A stretch of 64,000 nucleotides of DNA, taken from a virus (taxonomy: Duplodnaviria; Heunggongvirae; Uroviricota; Caudoviricetes). Each line of letters starts with the position of its first letter. Position 1 is the first letter of the stretch. Shown here one piece after another: positions 14,995-60,935 of this stretch. A program made the position numbers and the translations under genes. The notes below the pieces were generated by a model that was not told the origin of the DNA, did not search any database, and was given only the letters and a program-made list of their open reading frames with translations. Location: positions 30,417 through 94,416 of the IMG/VR virus record IMGVR_UViG_3300034072_002212; one strand, 5' to 3'.

Positions 14995-15000
14995 GACAAT

Positions 15001-15022
15001 GGGGAGGGTCTAGACCCTCCCC
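15001..15022. terminator. Bidirectional terminator hairpin between convergent genes
   Basis: Perfect palindrome GGGGAGGGTC-TA-GACCCTCCCC, then ATTTCCTTT on the plus side. It sits between the gp52-like stop (14994) and the minus-strand stop (15030). Confidence 0.6.
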
Positions 15023-15029
15023 ATTTCCT

Positions 15030-16975: not shown

Positions 16976-17075
16976 GCTGCCTCCTGTTACCCTGTCACAT
17001 CTATACTCTAGGTGTCACCTGTCAACCGTCCAGATAAGTATTGTATTGAAAAGGAGACTTTGCTAGACAGAACGA

Positions 17076-22847: not shown

Positions 22848-22877
22848 TGCGGCGCCTCCATAATTTCGCGCAATAGG

Positions 22878-23096
22878 TTACTCGCCACCAAATGTCAACT
22901 TGAACAATAGGGCGTGCTGCTTTTCCCGGAAGGCGAATGGGATTTTGTCCTGGGTCTGCCCACCGAAGCGGAAGTCCAAACCAATCTTCAGCTTGTGGTC
23001 AGCCATCCATGTAAAGATGGCGTTGATCGAGTTGCGTGAGGAAACGTGGACCTCATGCCAGTTCAGGAGACTAACGATAGCCATCGAACAATCCAT
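22878..23096 (-). CDS. FKLTWGG-family small protein, solo copy
   Basis: W-box IFTWMADHK. C-terminus FAFREKQHALLFKLTFGGE. Confidence 0.5.
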   Translation of the reverse strand: MDCSMAIVSLLNWHEVHVSSRNSINAIFTWMADHKLKIGLDFRFGGQTQDKIPFAFREKQHALLFKLTFGGE

Positions 23097-27017: not shown

Positions 27018-27150
27018 AAACGATCCTTATCCTGTGTTCTGGACAGGAACGTCTATGGCTAATCCTAAACAGGATGTCAATGCCAGAGTGTCAGAATATT
27101 TGACACAAGAATGGGGAGAGGTTGCCCTCTCCCCATTCTCATTAGAAAGC

Positions 27151-27613: not shown

Positions 27614-28057
27614 TTAGGGGATCGCCAGACGCAGAAACATCGCCCGTTTGGGCGCCTTGGAAAGCGGTTCGTCAATCATAGTGCCAATCTGCTCCAGCAG
27701 ACCAGGAATGCCTTCCATGAGACTAGGTTGCTTGCTCAGAAGATCCATAGCGTTTTGGCGAAGATCAAACCAGTAGTTGGCACCTGGCTTGCTATATTCA
27801 CCTGGGCCGACTTTCAGGGCATCAACATACGCCACGAAGTAGAACACCATCTTCTCTTGCTTGTGAAGCAAGCAAAGGTCTTTGAGCGTCTGGCCCAAGC
27901 GAGTGCAGCTACGGGTTAGTCTTCCCCGTTCATAGGGAGTGACCTGATTACAGTCCACGAATTCATTTTGCGTGGCATCTTTATGACTGCGGGAGACGTT
28001 GCGGACCACCCGTAGATGCTTGATCACATCCTTGTAGAGGTCCGCTACATCGCTCAC
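27614..28057 (-). CDS. Hypothetical protein (147 aa)
   Basis: ORF only. Confidence 0.45.
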   Translation of the reverse strand: MSDVADLYKDVIKHLRVVRNVSRSHKDATQNEFVDCNQVTPYERGRLTRSCTRLGQTLKDLCLLHKQEKMVFYFVAYVDALKVGPGEYSKPGANYWFDLRQNAMDLLSKQPSLMEGIPGLLEQIGTMIDEPLSKAPKRAMFLRLAIP

Positions 28058-28620
28058 GCGGTGGGCAACCCGTCCGGGCCGATGCCGATGATCTCACCGC
28101 CCACAAACTTGACCCGGCCTAGCTTGTCCGTGCCAGCTTGTGCCCAGCGCATCCACCAGATGTCCTCACGAACTTGCGTGACAATTTCACCTAGCCAGTT
28201 GGTGCCCTGCCAGGTGTTGCGGTCCTGGGCCAGGGGATCGTTGGACGCGAGGCCAATACCCCAGATCTTGTCCCACGGGCTTGCTTCGACCAGCGTGGTG
28301 CCTCGGGTACCCATCAGCCATTTCATCGCCTCGTGGTTCTGCGTGAACTTGGCAAAGTTGGCGCGGTAGACATACACCTTGGCATTGGCTTCCCAGATCG
28401 CCTTGTCGAAGTTCTGAACCGTGCGACCGGCGGCTTTCTGAATCTTGGGATTGTCGGTCCCCATGATGATTGCCAGCGCGGCCTGGTCGTCGAACAGGAT
28501 AGCCTTCTGAGCCATCATATACTGCTCGGCGCAGTTATACTTCACCCCGTCGAGAATGAACTCGCTGGGAGCCCACTGGCTTGCCCAGCCGCCATAGAAG
28601 AACGTGAACTGCTCAGCCAT
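28054..28620 (-). CDS. NADAR domain protein (YbiA-like, DUF1768)
   Basis: FFYGGWASQW...AEQYMMAQKA...FAKFTQNHEAMKWLMGTRGTTLVEASPWDKIWGIG aligns along the length of E. coli YbiA (FYS...SEHYFQAQKF...LVEHTENDAYWGDG). Confidence 0.7.
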   Translation of the reverse strand: MAEQFTFFYGGWASQWAPSEFILDGVKYNCAEQYMMAQKAILFDDQAALAIIMGTDNPKIQKAAGRTVQNFDKAIWEANAKVYVYRANFAKFTQNHEAMKWLMGTRGTTLVEASPWDKIWGIGLASNDPLAQDRNTWQGTNWLGEIVTQVREDIWWMRWAQAGTDKLGRVKFVGGEIIGIGPDGLPTA

Positions 28621-29095
28621 TGGGGCACCATCCCTTGCGCGCGCCGCCCACGTAGGGTCGTGCGTAGCTTTGCATGATCAGGTCCTGCGCGAGGTTCCGA
28701 CCGTTGACGTAGACGTCTGCGTCCACGCGCCCGCCATACTTGTCCCATTTGAGATTGGTCAGGGTGACCTTGTTACCAGCCAGCCTGATCATGCGGGTTG
28801 TGTAGAGCTTGGCACCGGCAGCGTTGCGCTTCTCGAACTCGCACTTGCCGCGCATCTCAGGGGTGTCCACTCCACGCACCCGAACGCCAATGCGGCTCAA
28901 CTCGGGCGGCAGGCCATCCATGCGGATGTAGAAGGTGTCTCCATCATAGATATCCACTACATCGTAGGTATAGGAACGAGAAGTCTGGGCTTGTGCCTCA
29001 TAGTGGCAAGCCCCGAGGCTTAGGGCCGCTGCGGCCAGGAGAGTGGATAGAATCTTCATGTCCATATCGCTATAGGATAGGTGACCGGTTGTCAA
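28613..29095 (-). CDS. Secreted staphylococcal-nuclease (thermonuclease) family lipoprotein
   Basis: Lipobox LSLGAC. DGDTFYI...VRVRGVDTPE...DKYGGRVDADVYVNGRNLAQDL matches SNase catalytic motifs. Confidence 0.7.
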   Translation of the reverse strand: MTTGHLSYSDMDMKILSTLLAAAALSLGACHYEAQAQTSRSYTYDVVDIYDGDTFYIRMDGLPPELSRIGVRVRGVDTPEMRGKCEFEKRNAAGAKLYTTRMIRLAGNKVTLTNLKWDKYGGRVDADVYVNGRNLAQDLIMQSYARPYVGGARKGWCPNG

Positions 29096-29137: not shown

Positions 29138-30343
29138 TTAGCGAGCTGCCAGCTGAGCCTGCCGGTTGGCTGCGCTGAGCAGCGTTTCCTTGAGCTTCTG
29201 CTCGGCGCCCTGGAGCGCCACTTCGGCCGCAGCGCGCTTGGCCTTGCCCTGCTCCGCGAGGTCGATGCTCTCGTTGATCGTCGAGATCAGGTATTCGTTG
29301 GCCTCGACCGCCGCCTCGACGTCGAAGATACCACGCTCCATTTCCGTCCGGGTGATCCGGTTGGTCTCGTTGATCTGCTTCGCGCTGGCGACCAGCAGTT
29401 CGTTGGTGAAGTCGGTCGCGGCCTTGCTGGCCTTGCCGGCTTCCGCCGCGCGCCATGCGGCGATCTGAACCGCCATCGTGCGCTTCCAGAGGGGAACGGC
29501 CGTCAGGATCTGCGTCTGGATCTTCTCGGCCATGCCCTTGTCGTTGGCCTGGACGATGCGGATGCTGGGCAGCGCCTGGATGGTCACGTTGCGGGTCAGC
29601 AGCAGGTCAGCGCGCTTGCGCTCCAGCGAATCGCGCGCTTCGATCATGTCGCGCACTTCCTGGGTGTCGGCCATGTCCTGCGTCTCGTTGGCCTTTGCCT
29701 GGAGCCGCGGGATCTCGACGGTGTTGACCTCGTTGAGCAGCCACTCGACCGCCGCGATCTGCTCGTCGAGCGAATCCAGCAGGCCCAGCGTGGCCTCGTA
29801 TTGCTTGTCCAGCGCAACGATGTCCTTGAGCATCTGAACGCGATGACCCTCGAGCACGTTGGTCGACTTGATGATCTGCGCTTCGACCGTCTGATACTTG
29901 TCCAGGAACTTCTGGAGAACCGACGCGCCGCCGAACAGCTTCTTCAGGAAGCCAGGCTTCTTGCCCGCTGCCAGCTCACCAAAGTCCAGACCCTTCATGT
30001 CGCGCACCATCAGATTCAGCGCATCGCCGGCCGGACCCGTGTCCTTGGTGCGGACTCCCTGAAGCATCTGCTCCGAGACCTGAGTGGTCGCCTTCTGAGC
30101 TTCGACGCCGAAGGTGATGATCGACTGGCTGTCCTTGAGGTTGATCTTGCTGGCGAGCTCCTTGGCGCGCTCCGGCGAGATCTTGCGCGGCGCGCGTCCG
30201 GCGGCATTGTTGAGCGAGACGATTTCCTGCGAGCCGATCTCCGGCACGATCAGGGCATTGTCCGCCTGTGGGGTCGGGAGGAGTTCGCCGGTCAGAGACG
30301 GGGTTGCCGTCGCCGTGCCGACCTTGGTAGGATCAGTCGCCAT
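29138..30343 (-). CDS. TelA-like (toxic anion resistance / KlaB family) protein
   Basis: 401 aa, helical throughout, with a TelA-like organisation. An XpaC-like gene is adjacent, as in the Bacillus yaaN–xpaC operon. Confidence 0.55.
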   Translation of the reverse strand: MATDPTKVGTATATPSLTGELLPTPQADNALIVPEIGSQEIVSLNNAAGRAPRKISPERAKELASKINLKDSQSIITFGVEAQKATTQVSEQMLQGVRTKDTGPAGDALNLMVRDMKGLDFGELAAGKKPGFLKKLFGGASVLQKFLDKYQTVEAQIIKSTNVLEGHRVQMLKDIVALDKQYEATLGLLDSLDEQIAAVEWLLNEVNTVEIPRLQAKANETQDMADTQEVRDMIEARDSLERKRADLLLTRNVTIQALPSIRIVQANDKGMAEKIQTQILTAVPLWKRTMAVQIAAWRAAEAGKASKAATDFTNELLVASAKQINETNRITRTEMERGIFDVEAAVEANEYLISTINESIDLAEQGKAKRAAAEVALQGAEQKLKETLLSAANRQAQLAAR

Positions 30344-30348
30344 AGTGT

Positions 30349-31008
30349 TCAGATTCCCTCGTTCTGGAGACGGTTGTTCATGACCGTCATGTTCACGTCA
30401 AAATCCATGACGTCGTTGGACAGAAGCTTGTCGAGCAGCTTCTGAAAGTTGATCTCGATGGTGTCGAGCATTTCGTCGAACTTGGCCATCTGCTTCTGCG
30501 CCTCGAGGCTGCGCGAACCAGTGCGGCTCAAATGCGCGTAACCCTTGACCAGCGTGATAGTCTCGTCCAGGTAGCTGTTGAGCCAGCTCTGTGCAAGGAC
30601 CACGTCCTTGGGGTCGACGTGGAAGTCTTCGATGATCTTGCGACCGATGGCATCAATGTGCTTGATGCGCCGAACCGTGTTGGGGCTCTTGATCTGGGCG
30701 GCTTCCATGAGGATGCGGTCCAGCTTGTCGCTGCCCATCTTGATTGCTTCGACGACCAGCTTGGTGTCAACACCCGAGGTGCCGGCCGCGATGTCGTCGA
30801 TATGCTTGTGAAGAGCGCGGATGTCGTCAGCCGTTACGGGCTTGCGACCAGGCCAGAAATACCAGATGCCCGATCCTGTGAGTAGCGCCAGCGGCGCGCT
30901 GATCAGGATATCACCGATGAAGCCCGTGGGCAGAGCGGCCATGCCGCCGATGAAAACACAAGCGGCTCCTCCCAGCGCAGCCGCCTTACTCACTAGACTA
31001 TTTGCCAT
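30349..31008 (-). CDS. XpaC-like membrane protein (tentative)
   Basis: N-terminal TM segments followed by a helical cytoplasmic domain. Positioned next to TelA as in the Bacillus yaaN–xpaC pair. Confidence 0.35.
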   Translation of the reverse strand: MANSLVSKAAALGGAACVFIGGMAALPTGFIGDILISAPLALLTGSGIWYFWPGRKPVTADDIRALHKHIDDIAAGTSGVDTKLVVEAIKMGSDKLDRILMEAAQIKSPNTVRRIKHIDAIGRKIIEDFHVDPKDVVLAQSWLNSYLDETITLVKGYAHLSRTGSRSLEAQKQMAKFDEMLDTIEINFQKLLDKLLSNDVMDFDVNMTVMNNRLQNEGI

Positions 31009-31129
31009 TGCTACCTCGTTGTTACAGAGCTCTGTATAGTCCTAATTGGACATCTGTCTACCACTCATTTGTTCAGAAAGGAAGGGCCACGGTTTCCCGC
31101 AGCCCTTCCCCTACGAAGCCCAGTGAGGG

Positions 31130-32869
31130 TTATTCAGCGTCGGGATGAATCCCTGCCAGCCGCTGAAGTTCCTCACGCTCGTCGGCCGGGAGAGGCTCGT
31201 CGCGCACCCGGCGGGGCTTGGGGGCCGGAACCGCCTTGGCCACCGGCGCATCACCGTTGCCGGTGATCGGAGCCGAAAGACCATCGACCACACCCGACAT
31301 GCCCTTGCTCAGGTCAATGCCAAGTTCCTTGGCCAGCTCGTCCACGAAGGGAGCCTGGAGCCGGTAGCCCAGCAGAGCGTCAGTCATCTGGCCGGGCAGA
31401 CCGTTACCGCCGTTTCCCGAGGTCTCGCCCTCCTCACCGCCGAAGGTGCGACCGCCACCGATGCCGCCGTTCATGTGAACAACGCGGAAGCTGTCAATCT
31501 TCTCGATGGGCTTGCCCATCTGCTCGAGGATCTCAGGCAGCTTGTCGATGAGCTTGAGGCGGATCTGCAGCGCAGCCTGCTCAGGGCTCATGAGGTTCGC
31601 AGCTTCGTTCAGCGCCCGCTGACCCTCGGCCTCAACCTCGTAACGACGTGCGTCTGCCTCGACTAGGCGCTCCTTGGCCTTGGCGCTGGCGTCAGCTGCC
31701 GCGAGCTCAGCTTCCGCACGGATGCGGATACCAGCGGCCTCTTCCTGTGCCTTGGTCTCGGCCGCGATGACCGCAACCTTCTGGTCACGCTGGGCGCGCG
31801 CTTCGGCCTCAACGGTCTTCACCGCTTCAGCAGCCGCGACCGCAGTCGCGCGGGCTTCGTCAGCCTTGGCACGAGCAGTCGACTCTTCCTCGGACTTCTG
31901 GGCGACCGCAATGCGCGATGCCTGTGCCGCAATCTCGAGAGCCTGTGCGGCCTCGGTCTCTGCGACCTGAATCCGGCGCTTCTGCTCGACACGCGCTGCC
32001 TCGGTGGCCTGGTTGGCCTCGATTTCAGCGATGTCAGCTTCGCGAGTGCGCTCAGCGCGGATCTTCGCAAGACTAGCAGCCTGCTCGGCGCGCTGGGTCT
32101 CGACCTGACGCTCCTGCTCCAGGGTTGCGAATTCGTCCTGCTGCTTGATTTCGAGCGAACGCTTGTTCGCCTCGAAGTTCTTCTGCTCGATGGCGACGCG
32201 GTTGTCGGCCTCGATTTCGTTGCGCTCCTTGCGGCGGGTCTCGGTCACGCTCGTGAGCTTAGCCAGACCTTCAGCGTCGAACGCATTGTTGGGGTTGAAG
32301 TGCTCGACCGACGTCTGGTCCAGACCGGTCAGCGAGACCGATTCCAGTTCCAGACCGTTCTTCTTCAGGTCTTCAGCCGCTGTGGTCTGGACCTGCTTCA
32401 CGAAGTCGGCCCGCTTCTCATGAAGGTCCTGCATGTCCATGCCCGCCGCAACAGCGCGCAGAACGTCGACGAACTTGCCTTCAATCAGCTCAGCGAGCTG
32501 CTGGGGGTTGGTCGTCCGCTTACCCAGGGTCTGCGCCGCTGCCGCGATGCTTTCCAGATCCGGCGACACACGAACGTAGAACTCAGCCTTCACGTCAACG
32601 CGCAGGCGGTCCTTGGTGATCAGCGAGTCCTTGGCCTTGCGATCGACGGTGAGGCGCAGGGTCTGCATATTGATGTCCACAGTCTCGTGGAACACCGGCA
32701 GAATCAGAGCACCGCCGTCCTTGACGACCTTCTGACCGCCCATACCCGTGCGGACGAATGCCATTTCCTTGGACGCTCGCTTATAAAGCTGCGTCATGAA
32801 GAAGACAATCACACCAAGGACGACAACCGCCCCCAGGATGATCGCCCCAATAAAGGTGAGATTATCCAA
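31130..32869 (-). CDS. Flotillin / band-7 (SPFH) protein, YqiK-like
   Basis: N-terminal TM, SPFH core (ILPVFHETVDINMQTLRLTVD...) and a very long A/E/K/R coiled coil. 579 aa. Confidence 0.75.
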   Translation of the reverse strand: MDNLTFIGAIILGAVVVLGVIVFFMTQLYKRASKEMAFVRTGMGGQKVVKDGGALILPVFHETVDINMQTLRLTVDRKAKDSLITKDRLRVDVKAEFYVRVSPDLESIAAAAQTLGKRTTNPQQLAELIEGKFVDVLRAVAAGMDMQDLHEKRADFVKQVQTTAAEDLKKNGLELESVSLTGLDQTSVEHFNPNNAFDAEGLAKLTSVTETRRKERNEIEADNRVAIEQKNFEANKRSLEIKQQDEFATLEQERQVETQRAEQAASLAKIRAERTREADIAEIEANQATEAARVEQKRRIQVAETEAAQALEIAAQASRIAVAQKSEEESTARAKADEARATAVAAAEAVKTVEAEARAQRDQKVAVIAAETKAQEEAAGIRIRAEAELAAADASAKAKERLVEADARRYEVEAEGQRALNEAANLMSPEQAALQIRLKLIDKLPEILEQMGKPIEKIDSFRVVHMNGGIGGGRTFGGEEGETSGNGGNGLPGQMTDALLGYRLQAPFVDELAKELGIDLSKGMSGVVDGLSAPITGNGDAPVAKAVPAPKPRRVRDEPLPADEREELQRLAGIHPDAE

Positions 32870-32891
32870 CTACTTTCTCCTGGTGATCTGT

Positions 32892-33551
32892 TTAGATCTT
32901 GCGAACGATGAATGCGTAAGCGCGTTCTCGGTGTGGACCGATTAGCACCACCTGTGAACCATTTGCAATACTTTCTTCTCCCTCCCCACAAACCATTACT
33001 GTGTGATCGGTTCCATGCGCGTCAGTAAAGCGCGCCATGCCAAAGTCCTCGCGGGCAATTGGACCAACAGTCACAACGCCGGCAGAACCCGTGAGACTCT
33101 CGAGGCTAACGGCATTCGACTCATCCTTGGGAAGGACGGGAGCGAGCCCCAGAGAACACAAACGAACGGTTGGAAGGGTGAGAGCGAGCACGATGGGCGC
33201 ACCAAAGAGCGCAGGCGCTAGGGAGCCCGTCAGTCCATCATAGATCCACTGAGCACTGTAGCCCAGGAGAGCAAAGCTGCCGCAGAATAGCGTGAGGAAG
33301 ATTGTGCTGGGCACATGGCCGGGATTGGCCCAACCGATGATACCAGCATGGCCGATTTCCAGATGATCTGGAATGCCGTTGCCGTTGAGGTCTAGGCTAA
33401 AATCAGCATGGCCATGGAGGGCATCAAAGCCAGCGCCCAGCGCCATTCCAATGATGCCGAAGAGGAGAAGGGCGAGAACCACACATCCTGAAATTAGGTA
33501 TGGGAGGTTGGGCCCGGCTGTAAGGAAATCCATGAGGCTCATAAGCCCCAC
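32892..33551 (-). CDS. NfeD/YqiJ-like membrane protein, partner of the flotillin gene
   Basis: Multiple TM helices plus a C-terminal OB-fold-like segment (GSAGVVTVGPIAR...ARFTDAHGTDHTVMV...GSQVVLIG). Lies immediately upstream of the flotillin gene. Confidence 0.55.
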   Translation of the reverse strand: MGLMSLMDFLTAGPNLPYLISGCVVLALLLFGIIGMALGAGFDALHGHADFSLDLNGNGIPDHLEIGHAGIIGWANPGHVPSTIFLTLFCGSFALLGYSAQWIYDGLTGSLAPALFGAPIVLALTLPTVRLCSLGLAPVLPKDESNAVSLESLTGSAGVVTVGPIAREDFGMARFTDAHGTDHTVMVCGEGEESIANGSQVVLIGPHRERAYAFIVRKI

Positions 33552-34103: not shown

Positions 34104-34178
34104 TGGTGCTGTTGGGGAGGATTGAACTCCCGACTTCCTCATTACCAATGAGGTACTCTACCACTGAGTTACAACAGC
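34104..34178 (-). tRNA. tRNA-Thr (anticodon GGU), 75 nt with encoded CCA
   Basis: Folded by hand: acceptor GCTGTTG/CAACAGC, D-arm ACTC-AGTGGTA-GAGT, anticodon arm CCTCA-TTGGTAA-TGAGG, T-arm GGGAG-TTCAATC-CTCCC, discriminator A, CCA. Confidence 0.75.
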
Positions 34179-35676: not shown

Positions 35677-37428
35677 CTAGCCATTCTTGGATGCGAGTTC
35701 GTTCACAACCATGTGATTGAGGTCAGAGATCCTGTAGGGCTTGCCTAGCACCTTGATCTTATGACTGCGGTCTCGCTTGAGCTCCCTAAGGGCCACTTCA
35801 GCATGACCTGTGGTGAAGATCACGGGTAAATCCGGACGGATATTGCTGGCAGCTTTGGCAAGCTGGAAACCATCAATGCCATTGGGCATCACAACGTCGG
35901 TGAACAATAGGTCAATGGGAATGTCGAGATTCTGAATGATCTCCAGTGCGCTTTTGCCATCTTGTGCGCTCAGGACATTGTAGCCCATTTCCATCAAAGC
36001 CTGCGCTGCGAGCTCTCTGACGCCGGGCTCGTCATCTACCACAAGAATGCTGGCCTTGGTAGCGTCGTAGTTGAAGTCTTCCTCGTCCCGCGTTTCTTCG
36101 ACCGTTTCTCCGGCTGTGTAGGGGAAGAGCATCTCTACGGTTGTTCCCTTGCCCAACACGCTGTCAATGAAGACCTTGCCGTTGCTCTGCTGACAGAAGC
36201 CATAGACCATGGAGAGACCAAGCCCACTACCCTTGCCCACGTCCTTGGTCGTGTAGAATGGTTCAAAGGCCCGTTCTTTGGTTTCCTGAGTCATGCCTTC
36301 GCCAGTATCACTGACGCTGACACTCACAAAGCGCGTGTCGTCAATGGAACGGTTTTGTGTCTTAATACAGATCCGACCACCATTGGGCATTGCGTCTCTG
36401 GCGTTGATGCCAAGGTTGAGAATAGCACTCTCGAGCTGTGATTTGTCGCTCAAGCAAAGCCAGACGTCTTCCTGGAGATCAATCTCAACAGGAATACTAA
36501 CACCGACCGCCCGCTGGACCATTTCCTGGACGCCAACGACGACCTCGTTGACGTTCAGTCGCTCGGGATGGAGTCGCGATTTACGAGAGAACGCAAGCAA
36601 TTGGCTCGTGAGCTTTTCTGCCTTGAGGGCGGCCTCGATCGCCATGGAAGTCTGACGTTCAATACGCTTTGCCACGGAGTTGTCTGGCAAGTTGGCCAGA
36701 CTCATCTTCGAGAGCTCGAGGTTCCCGATGATCACTGTGAGCATGTTGTTGAAATCGTGCGCGATACCACCGGTCAACTGCCCAACGCTCTCCATCTTTT
36801 GTGCCTGGCGGAGAGCATCCTGTGTTTTCTGCCGCTCTTCAATCTCTTGAAGGAGGCGCTCATTTGCTTCCTCGAGCTCTTGAGTGCGTTCGCGGACTTT
36901 GGTCTCTAGCAGTTCGTGAGCGTGGATAGATTCTTCCTGAGCCATTTTGAGCTCATGAATTATTGAAGCAACACCCAGCCATTTTACGAGGTTTTCGTTA
37001 TCATCCTTGATGGCTCGAGTGGTTGCACGGAACCAGCGATATTCTCCGTCATGTCGACGAATGCGAAACTCGGCTTCGTATGCTAACCCCTTGACATAAT
37101 GCTCTTCCATTGCCAGACGAATTACTGCTATATCGTCGGGATGAATGCATGTCTTCCAAAGATAATCATCATCAAGGGAGTATTTTACTCCCGTGAATTC
37201 AAACCAAAAATTATTGAGATAGGTGAGATTTCCCTGATCGTCTCGGGTCCAGATAATTGTCGGCGCAAGATCTGTGAGCATCTTGATATTGATGTCAGAT
37301 TTGATCGCCTTATCCACAAAACCCTCATCGCCCACTCCGCAGACAAGAAGACCTTGGGGTAATGGCCTACCTCCGGTCTGTCGCTTTGGCATCGAGAACC
37401 CCTTTAGAAGCGTAACGAATAGAACCAA
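35677..37428 (-). CDS. Hybrid sensor histidine kinase (PAS – HisKA – HATPase – receiver)
   Basis: H-box IAHDFNNMLTVI; ATPase DTGEGM...GSGLGLSMV; C-terminal receiver ILVVDDEP...DLLFTDVVMP. Uses a TAG stop. Confidence 0.8.
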   Translation of the reverse strand: MVLFVTLLKGFSMPKRQTGGRPLPQGLLVCGVGDEGFVDKAIKSDINIKMLTDLAPTIIWTRDDQGNLTYLNNFWFEFTGVKYSLDDDYLWKTCIHPDDIAVIRLAMEEHYVKGLAYEAEFRIRRHDGEYRWFRATTRAIKDDNENLVKWLGVASIIHELKMAQEESIHAHELLETKVRERTQELEEANERLLQEIEERQKTQDALRQAQKMESVGQLTGGIAHDFNNMLTVIIGNLELSKMSLANLPDNSVAKRIERQTSMAIEAALKAEKLTSQLLAFSRKSRLHPERLNVNEVVVGVQEMVQRAVGVSIPVEIDLQEDVWLCLSDKSQLESAILNLGINARDAMPNGGRICIKTQNRSIDDTRFVSVSVSDTGEGMTQETKERAFEPFYTTKDVGKGSGLGLSMVYGFCQQSNGKVFIDSVLGKGTTVEMLFPYTAGETVEETRDEEDFNYDATKASILVVDDEPGVRELAAQALMEMGYNVLSAQDGKSALEIIQNLDIPIDLLFTDVVMPNGIDGFQLAKAASNIRPDLPVIFTTGHAEVALRELKRDRSHKIKVLGKPYRISDLNHMVVNELASKNG

Positions 37429-41624: not shown

Positions 41625-41728
41625 GATCTGCCTCTTGTTCTATTTGTGTAAGAATACTGGATCCTCACCAGTTTTGTCTATTTGTGACAGGTGGGGCCAT
41701 GGGAGATAAACCCATGGCCCTGAACACC

Positions 41729-45262: not shown

Positions 45263-45281
45263 TCTGCCCTCCAAATTACCC

Positions 45282-45290
45282 TATATTTAG
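45282..45290 (-). promoter_or_regulatory. Late-promoter-like CTAAATATAG motif
   Basis: About 22 nt upstream of the ribosome-binding site of gene 44624..45262. Confidence 0.4.
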
Positions 45291-45334
45291 TGCTCAACTG
45301 TTGACTTTGGCGACAGACTTGCTACGTTAGTCCT

Positions 45335-45754
45335 ATGAGCGAGATCGAAGTTCCTCCGCGCGGCACGCGGGTAGAAGTCCTGACCCGTTATTCCCTCGAG
45401 TGGATGAACCAGTATCGGCGTCCAACCGTTGGTATTGTGGCCCACAGCAACCCCTGGGACAAACCAGGCACGTTCCGCCTAATTGGCGTCGACAACTGCT
45501 TGGGCGAGAGCGTCATCAACCTTGAGAACGTTGAATACCTCAAGGTTCTTGGCACTTCCAATGAGCCCAACAACCCAGAAGCCGCCAATATCCCAGATCC
45601 CAAGAAGGCCGAAACCTTCGAGATCAAGGGCAGCAAGGACAACGTCTATATCGTCACACTCGACGGAGATAAGTCGTCCTGTACCTGCCCCGCCGGCACC
45701 CATGGGCGCCAGTGTAAGCACGTCAAAGCTGCTCGGGAGATGCAGGCTTCGTGA
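45335..45754 (+). CDS. SWIM zinc-finger protein
   Basis: C-terminal CTCPAGTHGRQCKHV fits the SWIM CxC...CxH pattern. Confidence 0.45.
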   Translation: MSEIEVPPRGTRVEVLTRYSLEWMNQYRRPTVGIVAHSNPWDKPGTFRLIGVDNCLGESVINLENVEYLKVLGTSNEPNNPEAANIPDPKKAETFEIKGSKDNVYIVTLDGDKSSCTCPAGTHGRQCKHVKAAREMQAS

Positions 45755-46521: not shown

Positions 46522-48162
46522 TCAATTCATGTACTTGGTCTTGACGATCGTTTTTGGACGAGCAACCCTTTCACCACGAGCATCAGCGTTGAACTCATCA
46601 AGCGAGCCATACTCGAACTCGGCCTGTGCTTCCACTTCCTCGCTCAGGCTAACATCACCGTGAAGCTTGTGGCAAACTGCCTTGATAGCCTGGCGAACCG
46701 AAGCTTGTGGGTTCTGCTTGAGGGTCTCCTTGACTACGCGGAGAGTGTGAGCCAGCTGGCCCTGCGAAAGACGGGTTTCGGTAATCGTCTGTGCTTCTTC
46801 CTCAACTGCTTCCATGTAGGACTGAGTTAGGGCTTCTAGGCGGGCGCGGGTCTCATGAACGCTTGGGGTGCCCTTGTTCTCGTAGGTACCATGCCTTATG
46901 CCTGCGAGCTTGTCCATTTCCATGACCTGCTGCTGGAAGAATACCTCCTCAGTGGTTTCCTCTTCAACTACGTCTTCTTCCTCGACAGCTTCATAGAACT
47001 GACGATACTCACCAGTTGGCATGACATCGATACCCAGGACGTATGCGCCCTCAGCGATCTCAACTTCATGCTCACCAGCCGCGACCTTAGCTGCCAGAGC
47101 GCGTGCCTCACCATAGTTGGTGAAACCTTCTTGAACCAGCTGAACCTTGGTGCCAGCCGTTGCCCAGCTGGGGTTTTCAGCCGAGCCAATGTTTTCCATC
47201 ATCTGGGTGTGAACCACCACAGCAAAGTTGTTGGCCTCCATCACGGGCTCCTCTTCTAGTTCTTCTTGTTCAACAAAGGCGTGATCGTCAGATGCCACAT
47301 CACAAACATCAGACAAACCACCATCAAGTCCAAGCTCTTCCTCAAGATCTTCACAGAAGTTATCCTCCACATCGGTGAGGAGAGCGTCAGTCTCCATGAT
47401 ATAGTTTAGCGCACGGCTGCGGAACTCATCCTCATCCAGCTTACCCAGAGTGTGCATGTAGCTGGTGTTCAGATAGTGACCATATGCGCGGTTGAGAACG
47501 GTCTCAATGGGGAAACCCTCGTCCATTCCGCCCCACTCGAGGCACTCTAGGAGGTCACCCTTATCCAGGCTACCGGCAATATCGGAAAGGCCCTCAGACA
47601 AGCTCTCTGACACTCTACGAGCAACCATGAGGGGCGACTTAATACCCTGGGTGATCAAACCCTTCTTCTTGAATTCCTGATAGGTCTTCTCGTCGGTGAG
47701 CATCGCGTGACTCTTGCTGGCACTGTAAGCCGCGAGCTGGAAATGCTCCATGTCAAACTCAGTGCAGCCACCATACATCAGGTTAGGCTTGAAGGTGTAT
47801 TTCTTGAACGCCTTGATGGCTTCATGCTTGCTGGAATAGCCAAGCATAACCTTGTCCTCGTCAAAACGAGAACCATCAACGGTCAGCTGGTGCATGACGT
47901 AAACTTTGGCGTTGTGCTTGGGAGCCTTCCTCAGATAGCAATCGAGGTGCTCACCGTCTGGGCTATGCGTGCCCCTGATGTAGCCATAGTTGTCATCAAT
48001 CTTGTGAGACCACTCCTCGCCGGTCTTCTTGTTCTTGCCACGACGGTAACCGCCGGCAGGAACCTCGACACTGATGTCGAGACCTTCGAAGTGCATGCGA
48101 GAGTGGAGTTTGGCTTCGTTTAGCATCTTGAGGAAGTCCATTGTCACCAGAGAATCTCCCAA
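46522..48162 (-). CDS. Hypothetical protein (546 aa), acidic central region
   Basis: Long ORF. E/D-rich middle segment. No recognised domain. Confidence 0.5.
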   Translation of the reverse strand: MGDSLVTMDFLKMLNEAKLHSRMHFEGLDISVEVPAGGYRRGKNKKTGEEWSHKIDDNYGYIRGTHSPDGEHLDCYLRKAPKHNAKVYVMHQLTVDGSRFDEDKVMLGYSSKHEAIKAFKKYTFKPNLMYGGCTEFDMEHFQLAAYSASKSHAMLTDEKTYQEFKKKGLITQGIKSPLMVARRVSESLSEGLSDIAGSLDKGDLLECLEWGGMDEGFPIETVLNRAYGHYLNTSYMHTLGKLDEDEFRSRALNYIMETDALLTDVEDNFCEDLEEELGLDGGLSDVCDVASDDHAFVEQEELEEEPVMEANNFAVVVHTQMMENIGSAENPSWATAGTKVQLVQEGFTNYGEARALAAKVAAGEHEVEIAEGAYVLGIDVMPTGEYRQFYEAVEEEDVVEEETTEEVFFQQQVMEMDKLAGIRHGTYENKGTPSVHETRARLEALTQSYMEAVEEEAQTITETRLSQGQLAHTLRVVKETLKQNPQASVRQAIKAVCHKLHGDVSLSEEVEAQAEFEYGSLDEFNADARGERVARPKTIVKTKYMN

Positions 48163-54369: not shown

Positions 54370-56040
54370 ATGTTGAAGTGGATCTTTGAGAACAAAGCCG
54401 CAGCCGAAAAGAAGAAGCAACGCGAGGATGTTCTCAAGGCTGCTCTTGAATCTGGTGAGGCACTGGAGCGGGCCGCTAAGGGCACAATGAACCTGGCTCA
54501 GGATGTTACTGAGACTCTCCAGGCGAAGATTGATGACTACGCCGCGCAGATCGACCAAACCTCCCGCCTCCTAAGTGACGCACTCATGCTGGTCAGCGTC
54601 GATGGTGAGATTCAGAGCTTTAACCCAGCTGCTGAAACCATGTTTGGTTGGAAAAAGCGCGAGGTCATTGGCAAGAAGATCTCCACCATCTTCCAGTTCT
54701 CCCAAGAAACTGTTGTGAACAGTGAGTTCATGGAAAATCTCGTTGGCAAGGTCAACGACGATGATGAGTTCACGTCAGTCCACCATGAAGAGTTCATGGG
54801 CCTCTGCAAGGATGGTACCACGATCTACATTGACGTAGGCGCCAGCAAGTTCGTTCGCAGTGACAAGAAGATCTATTACATCATGCTTGTCCGCAACGTC
54901 ACACAACGCGTCAACAATAGCAAGATGATCCGAGAACTTGCTGAACGCAACCAGGAACTCCTGACTACTATTGATGCGTCCTCAACTGGTTTCATGATCC
55001 TGACCCCCGATGGTTCAGATTTCAACATCAGCTTCGTCAATGAGGGTTTTGCCAAGCTCACTGGTATGAAGCGTGCTCAGATCCGCAAAATGAGTATCAG
55101 GGATCTCTTTGGAGTTGAGTCCACATTCTGGGCTATCCGTCGAACCCTCATCGAGGGCACTGAAGGCCGTCACGAGGTTCAGTTTGAAATCGGTATGAGC
55201 CAGACCACTTGGTTTGAAGTCCACATCACCCCAGTGAAGAAGGGCATGCAACCAGTTCAGTGGATTTTGGTCTTCTATGATACGACTGAGCTCAAGAAAG
55301 CCTATCATGCGCTCAGCAAGAGTGAAGCGCACTTCCGAGCATTCTCGGATGCCAGCTCTGAAAGCATGATCATTCACGATTACAAGACCCTCATGGATTG
55401 GAACGATCGCGTAGCTCTGCTGACTGGCTACAATGACGCAGAGATCGAGAAGATGAACTTCTTCGACTTCCTACATCCTCTTCAGAGGGAAGAGGCCATG
55501 TCGAAGCAAGACCTCAGTATCGATGGCAGCTACGAAACCTTGTTCATGACCAAGACTGGTGATGTCAAGGAAGTCGCAGTGAACAGTCGTGCGATTGAGT
55601 GGGACAACGCTGAGGCACAGATCGCTATCGTGCGCGACATCACCGAGTTCAAGGACATCGAGACTCAGCTGAAGAACTCGAGGGAGCGTTACAAGACGGT
55701 CATCGAGAACACTATTGACATGGTGATCTGCTTCAACAGCAACTTTGAGATCACGTTCAGCAATCAGACGTTCCGAGACTACTTTGATGTGGAACTCGAG
55801 GATATCAATGGCTTCTCGCTCCTGGAAATCATCCCAGAGAGTGACCACAAGAAGTTCAAGGAGTATATGCTGAGTATCACTCCTGAACAGGATATTCGTC
55901 GCGGCGTTCACCGCGTTCAGCGTCATGATGAGACCCGTTGGCAGGATTGGATCGATCGTGGCATCTTTGATGAAGAGGGTAATCTGATCGAGATCCAGAG
56001 TGTGGCCCGAGACATTCAGCACCTGATGCCCAGCCAATAA
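54370..56040 (+). CDS. Multi-PAS domain protein (four PAS/PAC modules, no output domain)
   Basis: Four repeats of the PAS core pattern (for example VSVDGEIQSFNPAAETMFGWKKREVIGKKI and ILTPDGSDFNISFVNEGFAKLTGMKRAQIRKMSI). Confidence 0.65.
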   Translation: MLKWIFENKAAAEKKKQREDVLKAALESGEALERAAKGTMNLAQDVTETLQAKIDDYAAQIDQTSRLLSDALMLVSVDGEIQSFNPAAETMFGWKKREVIGKKISTIFQFSQETVVNSEFMENLVGKVNDDDEFTSVHHEEFMGLCKDGTTIYIDVGASKFVRSDKKIYYIMLVRNVTQRVNNSKMIRELAERNQELLTTIDASSTGFMILTPDGSDFNISFVNEGFAKLTGMKRAQIRKMSIRDLFGVESTFWAIRRTLIEGTEGRHEVQFEIGMSQTTWFEVHITPVKKGMQPVQWILVFYDTTELKKAYHALSKSEAHFRAFSDASSESMIIHDYKTLMDWNDRVALLTGYNDAEIEKMNFFDFLHPLQREEAMSKQDLSIDGSYETLFMTKTGDVKEVAVNSRAIEWDNAEAQIAIVRDITEFKDIETQLKNSRERYKTVIENTIDMVICFNSNFEITFSNQTFRDYFDVELEDINGFSLLEIIPESDHKKFKEYMLSITPEQDIRRGVHRVQRHDETRWQDWIDRGIFDEEGNLIEIQSVARDIQHLMPSQ

Positions 56041-56357: not shown

Positions 56358-56369
56358 GCCAGACACGGA

Positions 56370-56408
56370 GAAGCCCCGGACGTTGCCGTCCGGGGCTTCT
56401 TTGTCTCT
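56370..56408 (+). terminator. Rho-independent terminator
   Basis: GAAGCCCCGGACG-ttgc-CGTCCGGGGCTTC followed by TTTGTCTCT. Confidence 0.7.
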
Positions 56409-57302: not shown

Positions 57303-57523
57303 CGGCGGATTACAGGCGCAGCCTCGCTGGTCTTCTTGCGCTTCTTCTTGCGTTCAGCAGCATCATAGATGCCCTTGTGACCGTTGGGATCAAAGCCAGC
57401 ACCAATAGCGCCGCCTCCGGCTTTGCCACCATTACCAACCACAGTCGCAATGTTGCCCGATGCTGTGGCACCCGAAGATGCCGTTTCGTTTACCTTCTGT
57501 CCAACAATCTCGCTCCAGCGCAT
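57299..57523 (-). CDS. Hypothetical small protein (74 aa), Gly/Ala-rich
   Basis: ORF only. Low confidence. Confidence 0.3.
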   Translation of the reverse strand: MRWSEIVGQKVNETASSGATASGNIATVVGNGGKAGGGAIGAGFDPNGHKGIYDAAERKKKRKKTSEAAPVIRR

Positions 57524-58431
57524 TACTTCACCTTGATACCATAGCTCTTGAATATGTCGGTCGGAATATCCGCCTTCAGGCTATTTAAGCGTTCAAGATA
57601 GATATCGCAGATCTTCTTCCAATCGGCCGCATTGTAGTTATAGCGGGTAGTCACGGCAATCTGCTCAAAGGTGTTCAAACCTTCGGGATGATGATGTTCA
57701 CCCATGATCATCTCAGTGACGACCTTTGGGTCCTTGACCACGCTGGCACGCGCCTTGACTGCGCTGGGAAATTCCTTGAGGAACTCTTCCTCAGTGACTT
57801 CCTTGAGCTCCTTAACACGAGCCTTGCCATCCTTTCGCATGGGCCGATAGCGGTAGCGCCACACGCAACCCTTATCGTGGAAGAACGTGGGACCCACGCG
57901 GGCAATCATCTCACCGTTTTCTTCCAAGACCCAATCACTGTTGAAAGCAACCAGAGCCTTGATGAACTCAGTGCGGTAGAGACCCTTGAGGGCCGAGGTG
58001 TCAGCCTGCTGTCGCCAATAGCATCGTGAATACTGGACATTTTGGTCAATCTTGGCCGAATAGTAGCTGAACTTCTGCCACTCGTAGTCACCAAACATGA
58101 AGTCAACCTGAACATAGCCAAGTGCCGGATCACCCTTGATAGGCACGGCCGTGAAGATCTGATTGTTGCCGAGGCGTGGCTTCACATGGTCTTCGCCCAG
58201 CAGCTCAATCAGCGCCTTCGCTACTTCTTCCTGATTGTAGAGTTCAATGTTCAGGTTGAGATCAAGATCGCCAGAGTCGGGATTCTTACCCGCCGATCCA
58301 AGGAGGTGCTCCATATAGTTTCCACCCTGGATCTTGGATCCAGACCAGTTACTGGTGAGCCAGTTCAGAGTAGGCTCAATCTCCTCAAGCCGAATCCTGC
58401 GAGTGATTCCCTCGAATGCTTTACCGCCCAT
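57523..58431 (-). CDS. Pol-beta-superfamily nucleotidyltransferase fold protein (function unknown), adjacent to RNA ligase
   Basis: LLGSAGKNPDSGDLDLNL fits the hG[GS]x(9-13)DhD nucleotidyltransferase signature. 302 aa. Confidence 0.4.
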   Translation of the reverse strand: MGGKAFEGITRRIRLEEIEPTLNWLTSNWSGSKIQGGNYMEHLLGSAGKNPDSGDLDLNLNIELYNQEEVAKALIELLGEDHVKPRLGNNQIFTAVPIKGDPALGYVQVDFMFGDYEWQKFSYYSAKIDQNVQYSRCYWRQQADTSALKGLYRTEFIKALVAFNSDWVLEENGEMIARVGPTFFHDKGCVWRYRYRPMRKDGKARVKELKEVTEEEFLKEFPSAVKARASVVKDPKVVTEMIMGEHHHPEGLNTFEQIAVTTRYNYNAADWKKICDIYLERLNSLKADIPTDIFKSYGIKVK

Positions 58432-59590
58432 CTTCGATTCTCTTTCTTGTGTCTCGGAACATATTCAGGGTGCGCTGAGCCAGCTGTCCTGAGTAACTGT
58501 AGAGGTGGGACTTGTCACCATACGACATCAGGTAGTGGAGGGGATGACGTCCGCTCTCGAACCGGTCCAGAAGCTGCCGTAGACGAGCTAGTCTCTTATC
58601 AATCGGCCAATCCTTGGTCCTACTGAGGAAGCTGGGACGTGCCGGACGACGTCCACCCACAATCATATATTTGATCCGGTGAGTAAACTGGTTTGCCACA
58701 CTGAATTGCTGGCGATCCACAATCTTGAATACACCATTATCAGTGGCGACCACTACACCTTCCTTGAAGGATCCAGCACCAATAACACTAGGCGTCTCAT
58801 GGATAAGAACCCTCTGCGCGATGTCCTTGAACAAGAGCACAATAGAGGAGAACACTTCTCGGAGTTCCTCCCGCTCCTTCATGAGTTCCTTCTTCAGTTC
58901 GTTCCAGTTGCGATCGCCACAGTTGGGATGCTTCTTTGACAAGCTGATATCAAGGACCTCGAGGATCGTGAAACCCTTGACATTGGACTCAGTAGGGAAC
59001 CAGCGATCCAGGACCTTCTTGAGTTTCTGAGCGTGTGGTCCAAGTCGTGACTGAACCCATGGCATAGAATGCGGCGGGTTGATCTTCACAAGCCAGTTCT
59101 GATTCTGGACCTTGCGCTCAATGTCCCAACCGTTATTGCTCAATAGGGTTTCGTGCTGGAAAGAGCACTGAAACTTCTCCATAACCTTGAAGAAGCTGTC
59201 ATTGACATCATAGTCGATGGTGGTGATTACCAGCATACCATTGAGGTGTATAGGCATCTGGTAAGGGACAGTGTTGGGGAGGCATCCCTGTAGGATCTCT
59301 GCTCCCATACCTTGACCTGGACCAATGAGACCTTCCTTGCGGAGACCTTCAACTACCATACCAGCAACCGTGTGGCCAATCTTGTAGGTATCGGCCCAGC
59401 ACTCTTCAGGAAACTCCTCGAGGGTGTAGGTCTTGGAACCGCCTTTGCGCTGGGTGTAGAAGAAGCCTTCATCATCAAGGCCAAACTTGAGGTAGGATCC
59501 ATCAAGCTTTTCGCTCACCCACCACTGGAGGTCCAACGAATCATAGATCCGCTGGGCACTCAAATCTTCGAAGTGTGGAATACTGACCAT
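58421..59590 (-). CDS. ATP-dependent RNA ligase, T4 Rnl1-like
   Basis: Motif I SEKLDGSY (compare T4 Rnl1 KEDGSL), a later EGVVVATDNGVFKIVD block, 389 aa. Confidence 0.6.
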   Translation of the reverse strand: MVSIPHFEDLSAQRIYDSLDLQWWVSEKLDGSYLKFGLDDEGFFYTQRKGGSKTYTLEEFPEECWADTYKIGHTVAGMVVEGLRKEGLIGPGQGMGAEILQGCLPNTVPYQMPIHLNGMLVITTIDYDVNDSFFKVMEKFQCSFQHETLLSNNGWDIERKVQNQNWLVKINPPHSMPWVQSRLGPHAQKLKKVLDRWFPTESNVKGFTILEVLDISLSKKHPNCGDRNWNELKKELMKEREELREVFSSIVLLFKDIAQRVLIHETPSVIGAGSFKEGVVVATDNGVFKIVDRQQFSVANQFTHRIKYMIVGGRRPARPSFLSRTKDWPIDKRLARLRQLLDRFESGRHPLHYLMSYGDKSHLYSYSGQLAQRTLNMFRDTRKRIEDGR

Positions 59591-59621
59591 GCCCTGCGTT
59601 TAGCACGCTAGGGGCATGGTC
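59585..59621 (-). promoter_or_regulatory. 10-bp inverted repeat sequestering the RNA-ligase start codon
   Basis: GACCATGCCC-(17 nt)-GGGCATGGTC. The ATG at 59590-59588 lies inside the stem. A CTAAATAA late motif sits at 59627-59633. Confidence 0.45.
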
Positions 59622-59629
59622 CGCATTAT

Positions 59630-60643
59630 TTAGGTGCGTGCGCGGAGGAATGCGAACGCAATGAGGCCAAGATCCTGCATATCAGAATCGGTCATCTTGC
59701 TGATGCTGTCAACGTTCTTGACCTTGCGAGTCAAGCTCTCCAGCCATGGCTTGGTCTTTTGGAAATCGTTACGCAGAATTGCCCACATCTCTTCGGCATC
59801 ATACTGACCAGAAGGCTTGCTACCACCGGTGTTTGGGCTCAAGCGTCCGGTCTTACCACCCATCTGCTGGGCAGCGTCAGCGGTTGCTGCGGCCTGGTCA
59901 TTTCTTGGGCCATTGAGCAGGTATTCGTCGTTGATGCGAGCCGCGCTGCGATCCATGATCGCGCTAATGGTCTCACGATCTAGGATATCAGTTTCCTCGG
60001 CCTCGTTAATGGACTCAACGGCTTCTGGTTTCTCCACGTCACCCTTACTACGGTAGAAGGTCGAAGTGCCAAGAGTCAGCTTGTCACCAAATGGCATCTT
60101 ATCCAGCTTGGCCGTGATCTTCTTGCGATCCCATTCGCCGTTGGACTGACGATACTTCCTTGGGTCGTCACGGACCTCACCAGGTTCATTCTTCTTGTCA
60201 TCAACCTCAACAGCAACGCCAAGCTTTGCGAAGTCAGAGAGCTTGGTATTTAGATCCTTGGGGATAGGAACGCCTTCTTCTGGATCCCACTCATCACCCT
60301 TGGTCTCATTGCCAGTCTTGATCTTCTTCTCGACCTCTGGTTCTGTTCCATCTTCGTCATTGGCGTTATCCTCGTATGGGATGACTTCATCCAAGACTAC
60401 GTTGATGTCTTCGGGCGTGAAACCAATGCGAACAGCCATGAAGCGTTCTAGGTCTTCAATGGTGCCCTGACGGCCCGCTTGACCCAGCCACTTATAGTAT
60501 TCCTTCTTGAGGCGATCTGCCATTTCGGCACGTTCCTGGTTGCCCAGGCGCTGAGCCTTCTTGGCACCAAGCTTGTCACGCAGGTTCTGAACCCAGCCTT
60601 CGTTGAGGATCTGAGGCTTGGAGTTACCCTCGAGAAGATCCAT
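59630..60643 (-). CDS. Hypothetical protein (~338 aa); 5' end uncertain
   Basis: Track ORF runs to 60805, but its first 54 codons overlap the next gene and look non-native. The ATG at 60643 is proposed. Confidence 0.4.
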   Translation of the reverse strand: MDLLEGNSKPQILNEGWVQNLRDKLGAKKAQRLGNQERAEMADRLKKEYYKWLGQAGRQGTIEDLERFMAVRIGFTPEDINVVLDEVIPYEDNANDEDGTEPEVEKKIKTGNETKGDEWDPEEGVPIPKDLNTKLSDFAKLGVAVEVDDKKNEPGEVRDDPRKYRQSNGEWDRKKITAKLDKMPFGDKLTLGTSTFYRSKGDVEKPEAVESINEAEETDILDRETISAIMDRSAARINDEYLLNGPRNDQAAATADAAQQMGGKTGRLSPNTGGSKPSGQYDAEEMWAILRNDFQKTKPWLESLTRKVKNVDSISKMTDSDMQDLGLIAFAFLRART

Positions 60644-60665
60644 CAGTTGACGGATTCGTTCGCTT

Positions 60666-60935
60666 TCACTTGCCACGCTTGCTCTCCTCAATCTTGCGAT
60701 ATTCACGGATCTTGCGGTTGAACTTGTCAGGATCGCGATTCTTGATCGCACCCAAGAGGCGACGCTGAAGTTCATCAGCTTCATCCTCAGTAAAGCTCTC
60801 GGCAATGAGATTCATAAGGTTCACAGCACTAGCGATGACGTTAGTGGCACGAGCCTCAACAATTTGATGCTTGTCCCTCTGTGGGACAAAAAGATCGAGT
60901 TCCTCGATCAAACTTTTGACGCGACCGTCTTTCAT
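60666..60935 (-). CDS. Hypothetical small protein (~89 aa)
   Basis: Internal ATG of track ORF 60666..61034 (MKDGRVKSLIEELD...). Confidence 0.35.
   Translation of the reverse strand: MKDGRVKSLIEELDLFVPQRDKHQIVEARATNVIASAVNLMNLIAESFTEDEADELQRRLLGAIKNRDPDKFNRKIREYRKIEESKRGK

Follow-up and report, generated by a model that had tools for sequence, protein, structure and literature searches.

How do a ligase and a nucleotidyltransferase encoded by two overlapping phage genes act together, and how is the first of them translated when its start codon lies inside a hairpin? These questions are raised by a locus in the virus record IMGVR_UViG_3300034072_002212 (Caudoviricetes); the window analysed here is a 64,000-nt stretch of that record (its positions 30,417 to 94,416), and window coordinates are used throughout. 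The first-pass annotation had proposed an Rnl1-like RNA ligase and a minimal nucleotidyltransferase belonging to a tRNA-repair toolkit, with translation of the ligase controlled by the hairpin. Taken as a whole, our analysis tips slightly towards a coupled extend-and-seal operon that would be transcribed from a promoter of its own into a leaderless mRNA, while the hairpin would form only on read-through RNA. The pair is best explained as a two-gene operon of a huge phage; identical proteins are encoded by a metagenomic contig of 468 kb, the cultured phages related to it are Sinorhizobium phage Phosso (469 kb), Agrobacterium phage Atu_ph07 (490 kb) and a more distant relative, Pseudomonas phage PA5oct, and a nucleotide search of phage genomes gave a sole match (7%), to Phosso. 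Both open reading frames (ORFs) are present, both on the minus strand, and they contain the peptide motifs previously quoted for the two proteins:

59590..58421, minus strand: ligase-like gene, 389 amino acids (aa), with EKLDGSY (residues 27-33) and KEGVVV...FKIVDR (residues 276-293)

58431..57523, minus strand: nucleotidyltransferase gene, 302 aa, with LLGSAGKNPDSGDLDLNL (residues 43-60)

58421..58431, minus strand: 11-nt dual-coding overlap ATGGGCGGTAA, encoding the ligase C-terminus D-G-R-stop and the nucleotidyltransferase N-terminus M-G-G-K

The nucleotidyltransferase gene had been placed upstream of its partner; by the direction of transcription it is downstream of the ligase gene, with the 11-nt overlap between them.

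The first protein shows all four motifs of its superfamily that were looked for, namely motif I (E27-K28-x-D30-G31), motif III (E98), motif IV (E277-G278-x-V280) and motif V (K289, within FKxVDR, which has a single conserved lysine). Residues K28, D30, G31, E98, N106, E277, G278, V280 and K289 are invariant in 40 homologues, and the motif residues are still invariant in a broader 35-member set (about 23% identity). The AlphaFold model is confident (predicted local distance difference test score, pLDDT, 94.9) and has the nucleotidyltransferase-domain fold of the ATP-dependent ligase superfamily. Its fold scores were highest against the Naegleria RNA ligase (9.7), followed by REL1 (8.6), Trl1 (8.5), the archaeal Rnl3 (8.1), Rnl2 (7.9) and T4 Rnl1 (7.5), then DNA ligases (at most 7.4) and capping enzymes (at most 6.4), in alignments that cover only about 170-190 of the 389 residues. 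Outside this core, the protein has a helical insert of about 90 aa (residues 176-264) and a highly conserved, Arg-rich C-terminal part of about 90 residues (about 300-389), which is made of helices and one beta-hairpin and is not an OB fold; no OB-fold domain was found beyond the nucleotidyltransferase domain. An N-terminal OB-like module of the Rnl5 type is also absent, since the catalytic lysine at residue 28 leaves no room for it, and the N-termini of the family all begin MxSIPHFEDL. In DraRnl this module is described as about 126 aa long.

Sequence searches placed the protein in no existing family. The window protein had no significant match in Pfam, PHROGs or the PDB, and the PDB searches made with both proteins singly and with the ligase profile returned noise only; PHROGs hold no family for either protein. 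When members were scanned one by one, PF09414 (RNA_ligase) was touched by 25/40 (best E = 7e-5) and DUF6267 by 22/40, and no Pfam model attained its cut-off for the family. The Rnl1 family PF09511 was touched by one member of the 40 (E = 0.03), not by the window protein, and the closest fold is not that of Rnl1, so that the Rnl1 identity was rejected. The possibility that would have overturned the initial proposal, a gp30-type ATP-dependent DNA ligase, was rejected as well, given the missing OB domain and the DNA ligase scores, which lie below those of six RNA-ligase entries. In our judgement, the protein is probably a divergent, unclassified enzyme of the ATP-ligase type whose nearest relatives by fold are RNA ligases (Naegleria Rnl, REL1). 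Thus, membership of the lysine-nucleotidyl ligase superfamily and the proximity to solved RNA-ligase folds stand, and Rnl1 itself does not. In comparison with Rnl5 (Naegleria NgrRnl, Deinococcus DraRnl) and with Rnl2/REL1, the protein differs by the lack of an N-terminal module, by the helical insert and by the Arg-rich C-terminal domain, which is unique to it.

The partner carries the signature of the Pol-beta superfamily: G45-S46, G54-D55-x-D57 and Q108-x-D110 are invariant in 42 homologues and correspond to the hG[GS] motif, the DxD motif and the third carboxylate on a later strand. The fold agrees with this assignment, as the model (pLDDT 95.4) has its nearest solved folds in the catalytic core of family X DNA polymerases, and in a viral structure library the only annotated matches were giant-virus family X polymerases. 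A Pol-beta-type nucleotidyltransferase had thus been correctly recognized; the word minimal does not suit it, as the protein (302 aa) extends beyond the bare catalytic core, with a C-terminal part (about 214-296) that is mostly helical by DSSP. The Pfam family X models were matched by 0/42 members, and no 8-kDa, lyase or HhH modules were detected. RlaP was considered and rejected: PF10127 was matched by none of the 42 members (E <= 1), and hhalign against T4 NrdC.11 gave a probability of 0.1%; as a positive control, T4 NrdC.11 itself matches PF10127 at 4.6e-12. By its conserved residues and its fold, the partner is a true Pol-beta-superfamily enzyme and not RlaP. Among the homologues, EST35_0231 of PA5oct (L026, MK797984.1, 7064-7777) matches the nucleotidyltransferase family profile at E = 7e-22 and bears the annotation of a virion 'structural protein', found by mass spectrometry; the ligase homologue of PA5oct is 1.3 kb away and does not overlap it. 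The enzyme may be packaged in PA5oct virions.

Several observations tie the two proteins together. The same junction was found in all 25 loci with enough sequence, including Phosso and Atu_ph07 (ligase homologues XYS97603.1 and AUZ94878.1, respectively); in each of them the transferase gene begins 8 nt short of the point where the ligase match ends. All eight sequences that were read, from 7 loci and from the window, share the same 11 overlapping nucleotides, which explains the invariant termini of both proteins, and this overlap implies a probable translational coupling. Moreover, a profile search of 1.84 billion cluster representatives retrieved 563 ligase relatives, of which at least 10, all metagenomic, are single polypeptides with the ligase at the N-terminus and the transferase at the C-terminus. 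One distant metagenomic relative of the ligase (P0201, 1394 aa) has a NUDIX hydrolase domain fused in place of the nucleotidyltransferase, which could relate to 5'-end processing before ligation. Neither protein was found in 185,579 cellular genomes scanned with two conserved peptide patterns per protein; distant relatives of the ligase could be missed in these scans because its patterns come from the C-terminal domain.

The invariant junction and the fusions bear out the earlier idea that the two proteins work together. Together with the precedent of RlaP pairs, they make a two-step function, in which the transferase would extend or fill an end and the ligase would then seal it, the best-supported one that we can infer for the pair. 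Pairs of an RNA ligase and a Pol-beta transferase (RlaP) are indeed known in jumbo phages, and RlaP (PfRlaP, PaRlaP) adds 1-2 nucleoside monophosphates to damaged RNA 3'-OH ends. Like the RlaP pairs (T4 NrdC.11; Pseudomonas RtcB-RlaP-RtcA), the present locus links a ligase gene to a Pol-beta transferase that would rebuild a 3' end before sealing. Unlike them, its transferase is not RlaP, the two genes share an invariant 11-nt overlap or are fused, and neither protein was found by the two pattern scans of the 185,579 cellular genomes.

On what substrate would such a unit act? Both the fold of the ligase and the precedent of RlaP favour RNA. One specific proposal is that the pair, with cca and the phage tRNAs, is a T4-style repair kit directed against anticodon nucleases, in which an Rnl1-like ligase would join healed tRNA halves and the transferase would restore nucleotides. 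The nearest solved folds of the ligase, the Rnl-RlaP precedent (RlaP has been proposed to restore nucleotides lost to RloC-type nucleases) and reports of tRNA-processing genes in the related Sinorhizobium and Agrobacterium jumbo phages all speak for it. The phage also encodes a CCA-adding enzyme and a tRNA; both genes exist as had been described, and they are not clustered with the pair:

20865-21998, minus strand: cca, PF01743 at 5e-35, 37 kb from the pair

34104-34178: single tRNA-Thr gene, 24 kb from the pair

In line with the first-pass annotation, which had seen no Pnk, there was no polynucleotide kinase, no end-healing phosphoesterase and no RtcB among the 36 window ORFs scanned against Pfam. 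Because no kinase was found, and because cca and the tRNA are 24-37 kb distant, a role of the pair in a tRNA-repair toolkit is unproven, and we regard the T4-style kit as unlikely. The likeness to the T4 countermeasure made of Rnl1 (gp63) and Pnkp extends to a phage origin, the same ligase superfamily and a possible RNA substrate.

Other data suggest a substrate of DNA or of mixed type, as the best matches of the transferase are DNA polymerases and the pair adjoins primase and helicase genes. The primase gene is followed, in this order, by those for DnaB helicase, two small proteins, a protein of about 350 aa, the ligase, the nucleotidyltransferase and further small proteins, and then by an opposed PAS-domain gene; all long loci and Phosso share this arrangement, and Atu_ph07 and PA5oct retain part of it. 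The pair could accordingly be read as a DNA-side unit that carries out PolX-like gap filling and nick sealing, either at the replication fork or during base-excision or break repair. In a variant of this reading, a 3' ribonucleotide patch might be added and sealed, as with African swine fever virus (ASFV) PolX and its ligase or with LigD. Nevertheless, a DNA role has to accommodate the absence of an OB domain and the low ranking of DNA ligases, the weak Pfam matches that point to PF09414 RNA_ligase, and a transferase in which the 8-kDa, lyase and HhH modules of family X were not detected by Pfam; moreover, little can be concluded about function from a gene order that related phages share. We therefore hold the DNA-side role to be rather unlikely. 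The pair also differs from ASFV PolX and its ligase and from LigD in that its ligase is RNA-ligase-like and without an OB domain and its transferase has no sequence membership in family X; in LigD, furthermore, the polymerase is of the primase type and not of the Pol-beta type found here. The substrate of the extend-and-seal unit would most likely be RNA or a ribonucleotide-ended strand.

The second question concerns the start of the ligase gene, where four features are packed together:

59588..59590, minus strand: ligase start codon; the A at 59590 is the predicted transcription start; no Shine-Dalgarno sequence upstream

59579..59627, minus strand: RNA hairpin of the sense strand, with core 10-bp arms and an imperfect outer stem

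59597..59605, minus strand: candidate -10 element TGCTAAACG, of the alphaproteobacterial GCtANAWC type and with TG on its upstream side; it lies in the loop of the hairpin, and its end is 6 nt ahead of the ATG

59630..60676, minus strand: upstream co-directional gene of about 348 aa, function unassigned, start placed by its homologues

The start codon is supported by the conserved family N-terminus MxSIPHFEDL and by an in-frame stop 4 codons upstream. The TAA stop of the upstream gene occupies 59630-59632, 39 nt ahead of the ligase ATG, and this gene is the source of any read-through RNA over the ligase start.

The ATG does lie, as had been noticed, within a perfect 10-bp inverted repeat, whose arms on the plus strand are GACCATGCCC (59585-59594) and GGGCATGGTC (59612-59621). 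In the sense RNA, the 5' arm is 59612-59621 and the 3' arm is 59585-59594, which contains the AUG (59590-59588); an outer AAUGC/GUAUU extension lengthens the stem, and the 17-nt loop holds an inner 4-bp stem. The 91-nt region has a minimum free energy (MFE) of -30.5 kcal/mol, against -20.0 +/- 2.9 for dinucleotide-preserving shuffles (z = -3.7, 0/200 as stable). The window holds 15 perfect inverted repeats of 10 bp or more where 1.4 are expected, an excess of about tenfold; examples are found at 14998-15025, 27108-27139 and 56369-56400. Most of the 15 are intergenic GC-rich stems with A/T-rich flanks that resemble bidirectional terminators, and one, which also contains CCATGG, is located at 41694-41720, between the two ribonucleotide reductase genes. 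Since such repeats are not rare in the window, the significance of the one at the start codon rests on its position and its conservation. A search of Rfam gave no match.

Conservation was examined in 21 distinct upstream regions of the ligase gene, with 50 other gene starts from the same loci as a control. The mean MFE was -24.9 kcal/mol at ligase starts and -9.8 +/- 4.0 at the other starts, and the probability that the AUG is paired was 0.99 versus 0.42 (about 1.0 in 15/21 loci). The arm sequences vary by lineage and are complementary within each. Because the hairpin registers differ between clades, the hairpin centre ranging from -14 to -3.5 relative to the ATG, per-sequence folding and a chimera test were used in place of fixed-register covariation; native 5' and 3' halves folded at a mean MFE of -22.7 kcal/mol and inter-locus chimeras at -12.1 +/- 4.5. 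The hairpin is thus conserved in relatives, with lineage-specific complementary changes, and the objection that it might be confined to this sequence falls away. Two other readings of the hairpin sequence were discarded. UGCUAAA as a protein-binding loop (MS2/gp43 operator-like) does not fit, as the motif is in the stem in several lineages and its distance to the ATG is fixed while the hairpin centre moves. An upstream ORF in the hairpin (AUG CGG ACC AUG CCC CUA GCG UGC UAA) has a frame that is not conserved outside the window clade, and it arises automatically from the CATG palindrome.

The same short gap contains a second conserved pattern. TTGAC, 17-18 nt and (T)GCTAnA ending 6-7 nt before the ATG are conserved independently of the hairpin register, TGCTA being nearly invariant at a fixed spacing. 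This arrangement matches the Caulobacter RpoD consensus (TTGaCgS/GCtANAWC), which fits the alphaproteobacterial hosts of the cultured relatives, and the stop-to-ATG gap of 36-40 nt is just big enough for such a promoter. Judged by spacing and consensus, the geometry is that of a sigma-70 promoter with a predicted +1 at the A of the start codon. The gene has the features of a leaderless one, as AGGAG-like Shine-Dalgarno sites are generally present at the 50 neighbouring starts and never at the ligase gene, and the -10 element ends 6-7 nt ahead of the start codon. Three ORF starts of the window (59590, 45335, 17076) have TGCTA at -15, for an expectation of about 0.1 at other offsets. The starts 45335 and 17076 lie in divergent intergenic regions and have no ribosome site and no strong hairpin; both, on the plus strand, are candidate leaderless genes in their own right (45275-45337 for ORF 45335, with TTGACT 16 nt upstream, and 17030-17078 for ORF 17076).

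Two of the cultured relatives offer parallels. In Atu_ph07, the same layout appears when the ORF is extended by 16 codons, with TTGAAA, 17 nt, TATAAC, 7 nt and the ATG, and with a hairpin over the AUG. The annotated start of its AUZ94878.1 (L027, MF403008.1, 4501-4549), MNTVTLLEKLDGS, seems 16 codons too short, and the extension to MKHIYDL regains the family N-terminus, the promoter-like motif and the AUG-covering hairpin; the missing Shine-Dalgarno sequence may explain the annotated start. In PA5oct, TTGACG, 18 nt and TGCTATTAT are followed by a normal leader, and the -35 box is enclosed in a terminator hairpin of canonical form, complete with a T-run.

Several points weigh against the promoter and the occlusion that we propose. 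The window clade has no -35 match (AATGCG stands there and lengthens the stem), a final T is rare in the -10 hexamers, the promoter would be weak by E. coli rules, and a simple sigma-70 scan did not call it in the window. The fixed-register covariation is modest (59% paired versus 53% shuffled), for the reason of register given above. The burial of the AUG is not universal, because the hairpin falls short of the AUG or is missing in 4/21 loci and the AUG of Phosso is in the loop; in L009, L021 and L025 the AUG is not covered. Finally, sense and antisense folding energies do not clearly separate an RNA-level from a DNA-level structure. As to other promoter types, a T4 MotA-box reading of TGCTT/TGCTA was rejected, since its position would put the start site inside the ORF. 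T4-late-promoter-like (G/C)(A/T)TAAATA sites, such as TGCTAAATA and GATAAATA, occur about 30 nt before several starts in L017-L024, ahead of the gene after DnaB and ahead of the 105-142-aa gene downstream of the pair. In the window clade (59626-59633), the stop codon of the upstream gene is embedded in CTAAATAA, just ahead of the hairpin, and a transcript begun at CTAAATAA would carry the whole core hairpin.

Could the hairpin instead be a translational switch within one long mRNA, in which ribosomes that terminate at the upstream stop codon, or some factor acting in trans, open the 5' arm and so make the AUG accessible? The near-certain pairing of the AUG in 15/21 loci, the constant distance from stop to ATG (36-40 nt) and the upstream stop codon, which abuts the stem 2 nt before its outer part, would suit such a device. 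However, once the stem is open there is no Shine-Dalgarno sequence to capture the 30S subunit, the hairpin excludes the AUG in L009-L011, and the conservation of TTGAC and GCTAnA at promoter spacing, independent of register, is left unexplained. For these reasons we consider a switch of this kind distinctly doubtful.

A different explanation is that the hairpin is mainly a terminator, a 3'-end stabiliser or a processing structure of the upstream message and buries the AUG incidentally, the gap of only 39 nt forcing it onto the promoter and the initial codons of the next gene. It would account for the variable register relative to the AUG; it has a counterpart in PA5oct, where the terminator hairpin is wrapped around the -35 box of the homologous gene, and it is in keeping with the excess of perfect, mostly terminator-like hairpins in the window. 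Nevertheless, the stem is followed by AGUAUUCCACAC, without a U-tract in the window or in most relatives, and a terminator scan of the window did not call the hairpin; moreover, the 3' arm enters the ORF and covers the AUG in 15/21 loci, though shorter stems would fit the gap. A principal role in ending or processing the upstream message thus appears rather doubtful, although such a role may be added to the one that we favour.

The arrangement is reminiscent of T4 genes e, soc, 49 and I-TevI, in which the initiation region of long read-through transcripts is folded into a hairpin, while a promoter in the DNA of the 5' arm gives transcripts without that arm, which are translated. As in these genes, the predicted hairpin covers the initiation region. 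Promoter-like motifs lie inside it at the right spacing; unlike in T4, a promoter at this place looks to be of the host sigma-70 type, where that of T4 is a late promoter, and the mRNA would be leaderless. In the coupled extend-and-seal operon that we propose, transcription would start from a host-sigma-70-type promoter of its own that fills the 39-nt gap, of which the window clade would keep only the -10 part, and the transcript would begin with the A of the ATG. The hairpin would pair the promoter spacer with the first codons. As its 5' arm lies in the spacer, it could form only on RNA reading through from the upstream gene, where it would bury the AUG and may also end or stabilise the upstream message, and the enzymes would be made only from their own promoter. 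The transferase would then add or fill nucleotides at a 3'-OH end, and the ligase would seal the break. In this model, what the enzymes do and on which substrate, where transcription starts and what role the hairpin has in vivo are inferred. As regards the translational control first ascribed to the hairpin, occlusion of the AUG on RNA with both arms is retained; the promoter-like motifs inside the hairpin suggest that relief comes from the transcription start site and not from a factor that opens the stem.

Pairs of a ligase and a nucleotidyltransferase are thought to be the means by which large phages repair RNA that host defences have damaged. To our knowledge, only RlaP-type pairs have been studied, and recently. 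The present locus defines two unclassified families that are always linked and sometimes fused, with 563 ligase cluster representatives, none at a Pfam cut-off, and a transferase that resembles templated polymerases. A bolder reading, which we hold to be possible while the balance is against it, is that of an undescribed and apparently phage-restricted repair unit, in which a new ligase clade, lacking N-terminal and OB modules and having an Arg-rich C-terminal domain of its own, and a new family-X-like transferase, obligately coupled to it or fused with it, would perform templated fill-and-seal; a hairpin-nested promoter would yield a leaderless mRNA, and translation would be confined to promoter-proximal transcripts. 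Such a unit would be distinct from Rnl-RlaP, Pnkp/Hen1, RtcB and LigD and would act on RNA or ribonucleotide-tipped strands. If fill-and-seal repair is true, the locus would provide a new ligase clade of possible use as a reagent and would reveal a means by which some of the largest phages known safeguard their RNA or their replication intermediates. Gene callers miss starts such as that of the ligase gene because there is no Shine-Dalgarno site.

Further features of the neighbourhood were noted. The upstream protein of about 348 aa is not similar to the virion protein that PA5oct encodes at the corresponding place. On the other side of the pair, a four-PAS-domain protein (556 aa, 54370-56040, plus strand) is conserved opposite the ligase operon in all relatives, and a hybrid PAS-histidine kinase-receiver protein is encoded at 35677-37428 (minus strand). 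The cca gene is directly preceded by an HNH endonuclease gene (22058-22891, minus strand). Beside the tRNA-Thr gene lies a block of membrane-stress type (29138-33551, minus strand) with TelA, 'Halogen_Hydrol', SPFH/flotillin and YqiJ-like proteins; SPFH/Band-7 modules have been proposed as RNA-repair scaffolds. Other cargo on the minus strand includes a NADAR domain protein beside a staphylococcal-nuclease-like protein (28054-29095), a 546-aa protein with an N-terminal inorganic pyrophosphatase domain (46522-48162) and a ClpX-like ATPase (4346-5602).

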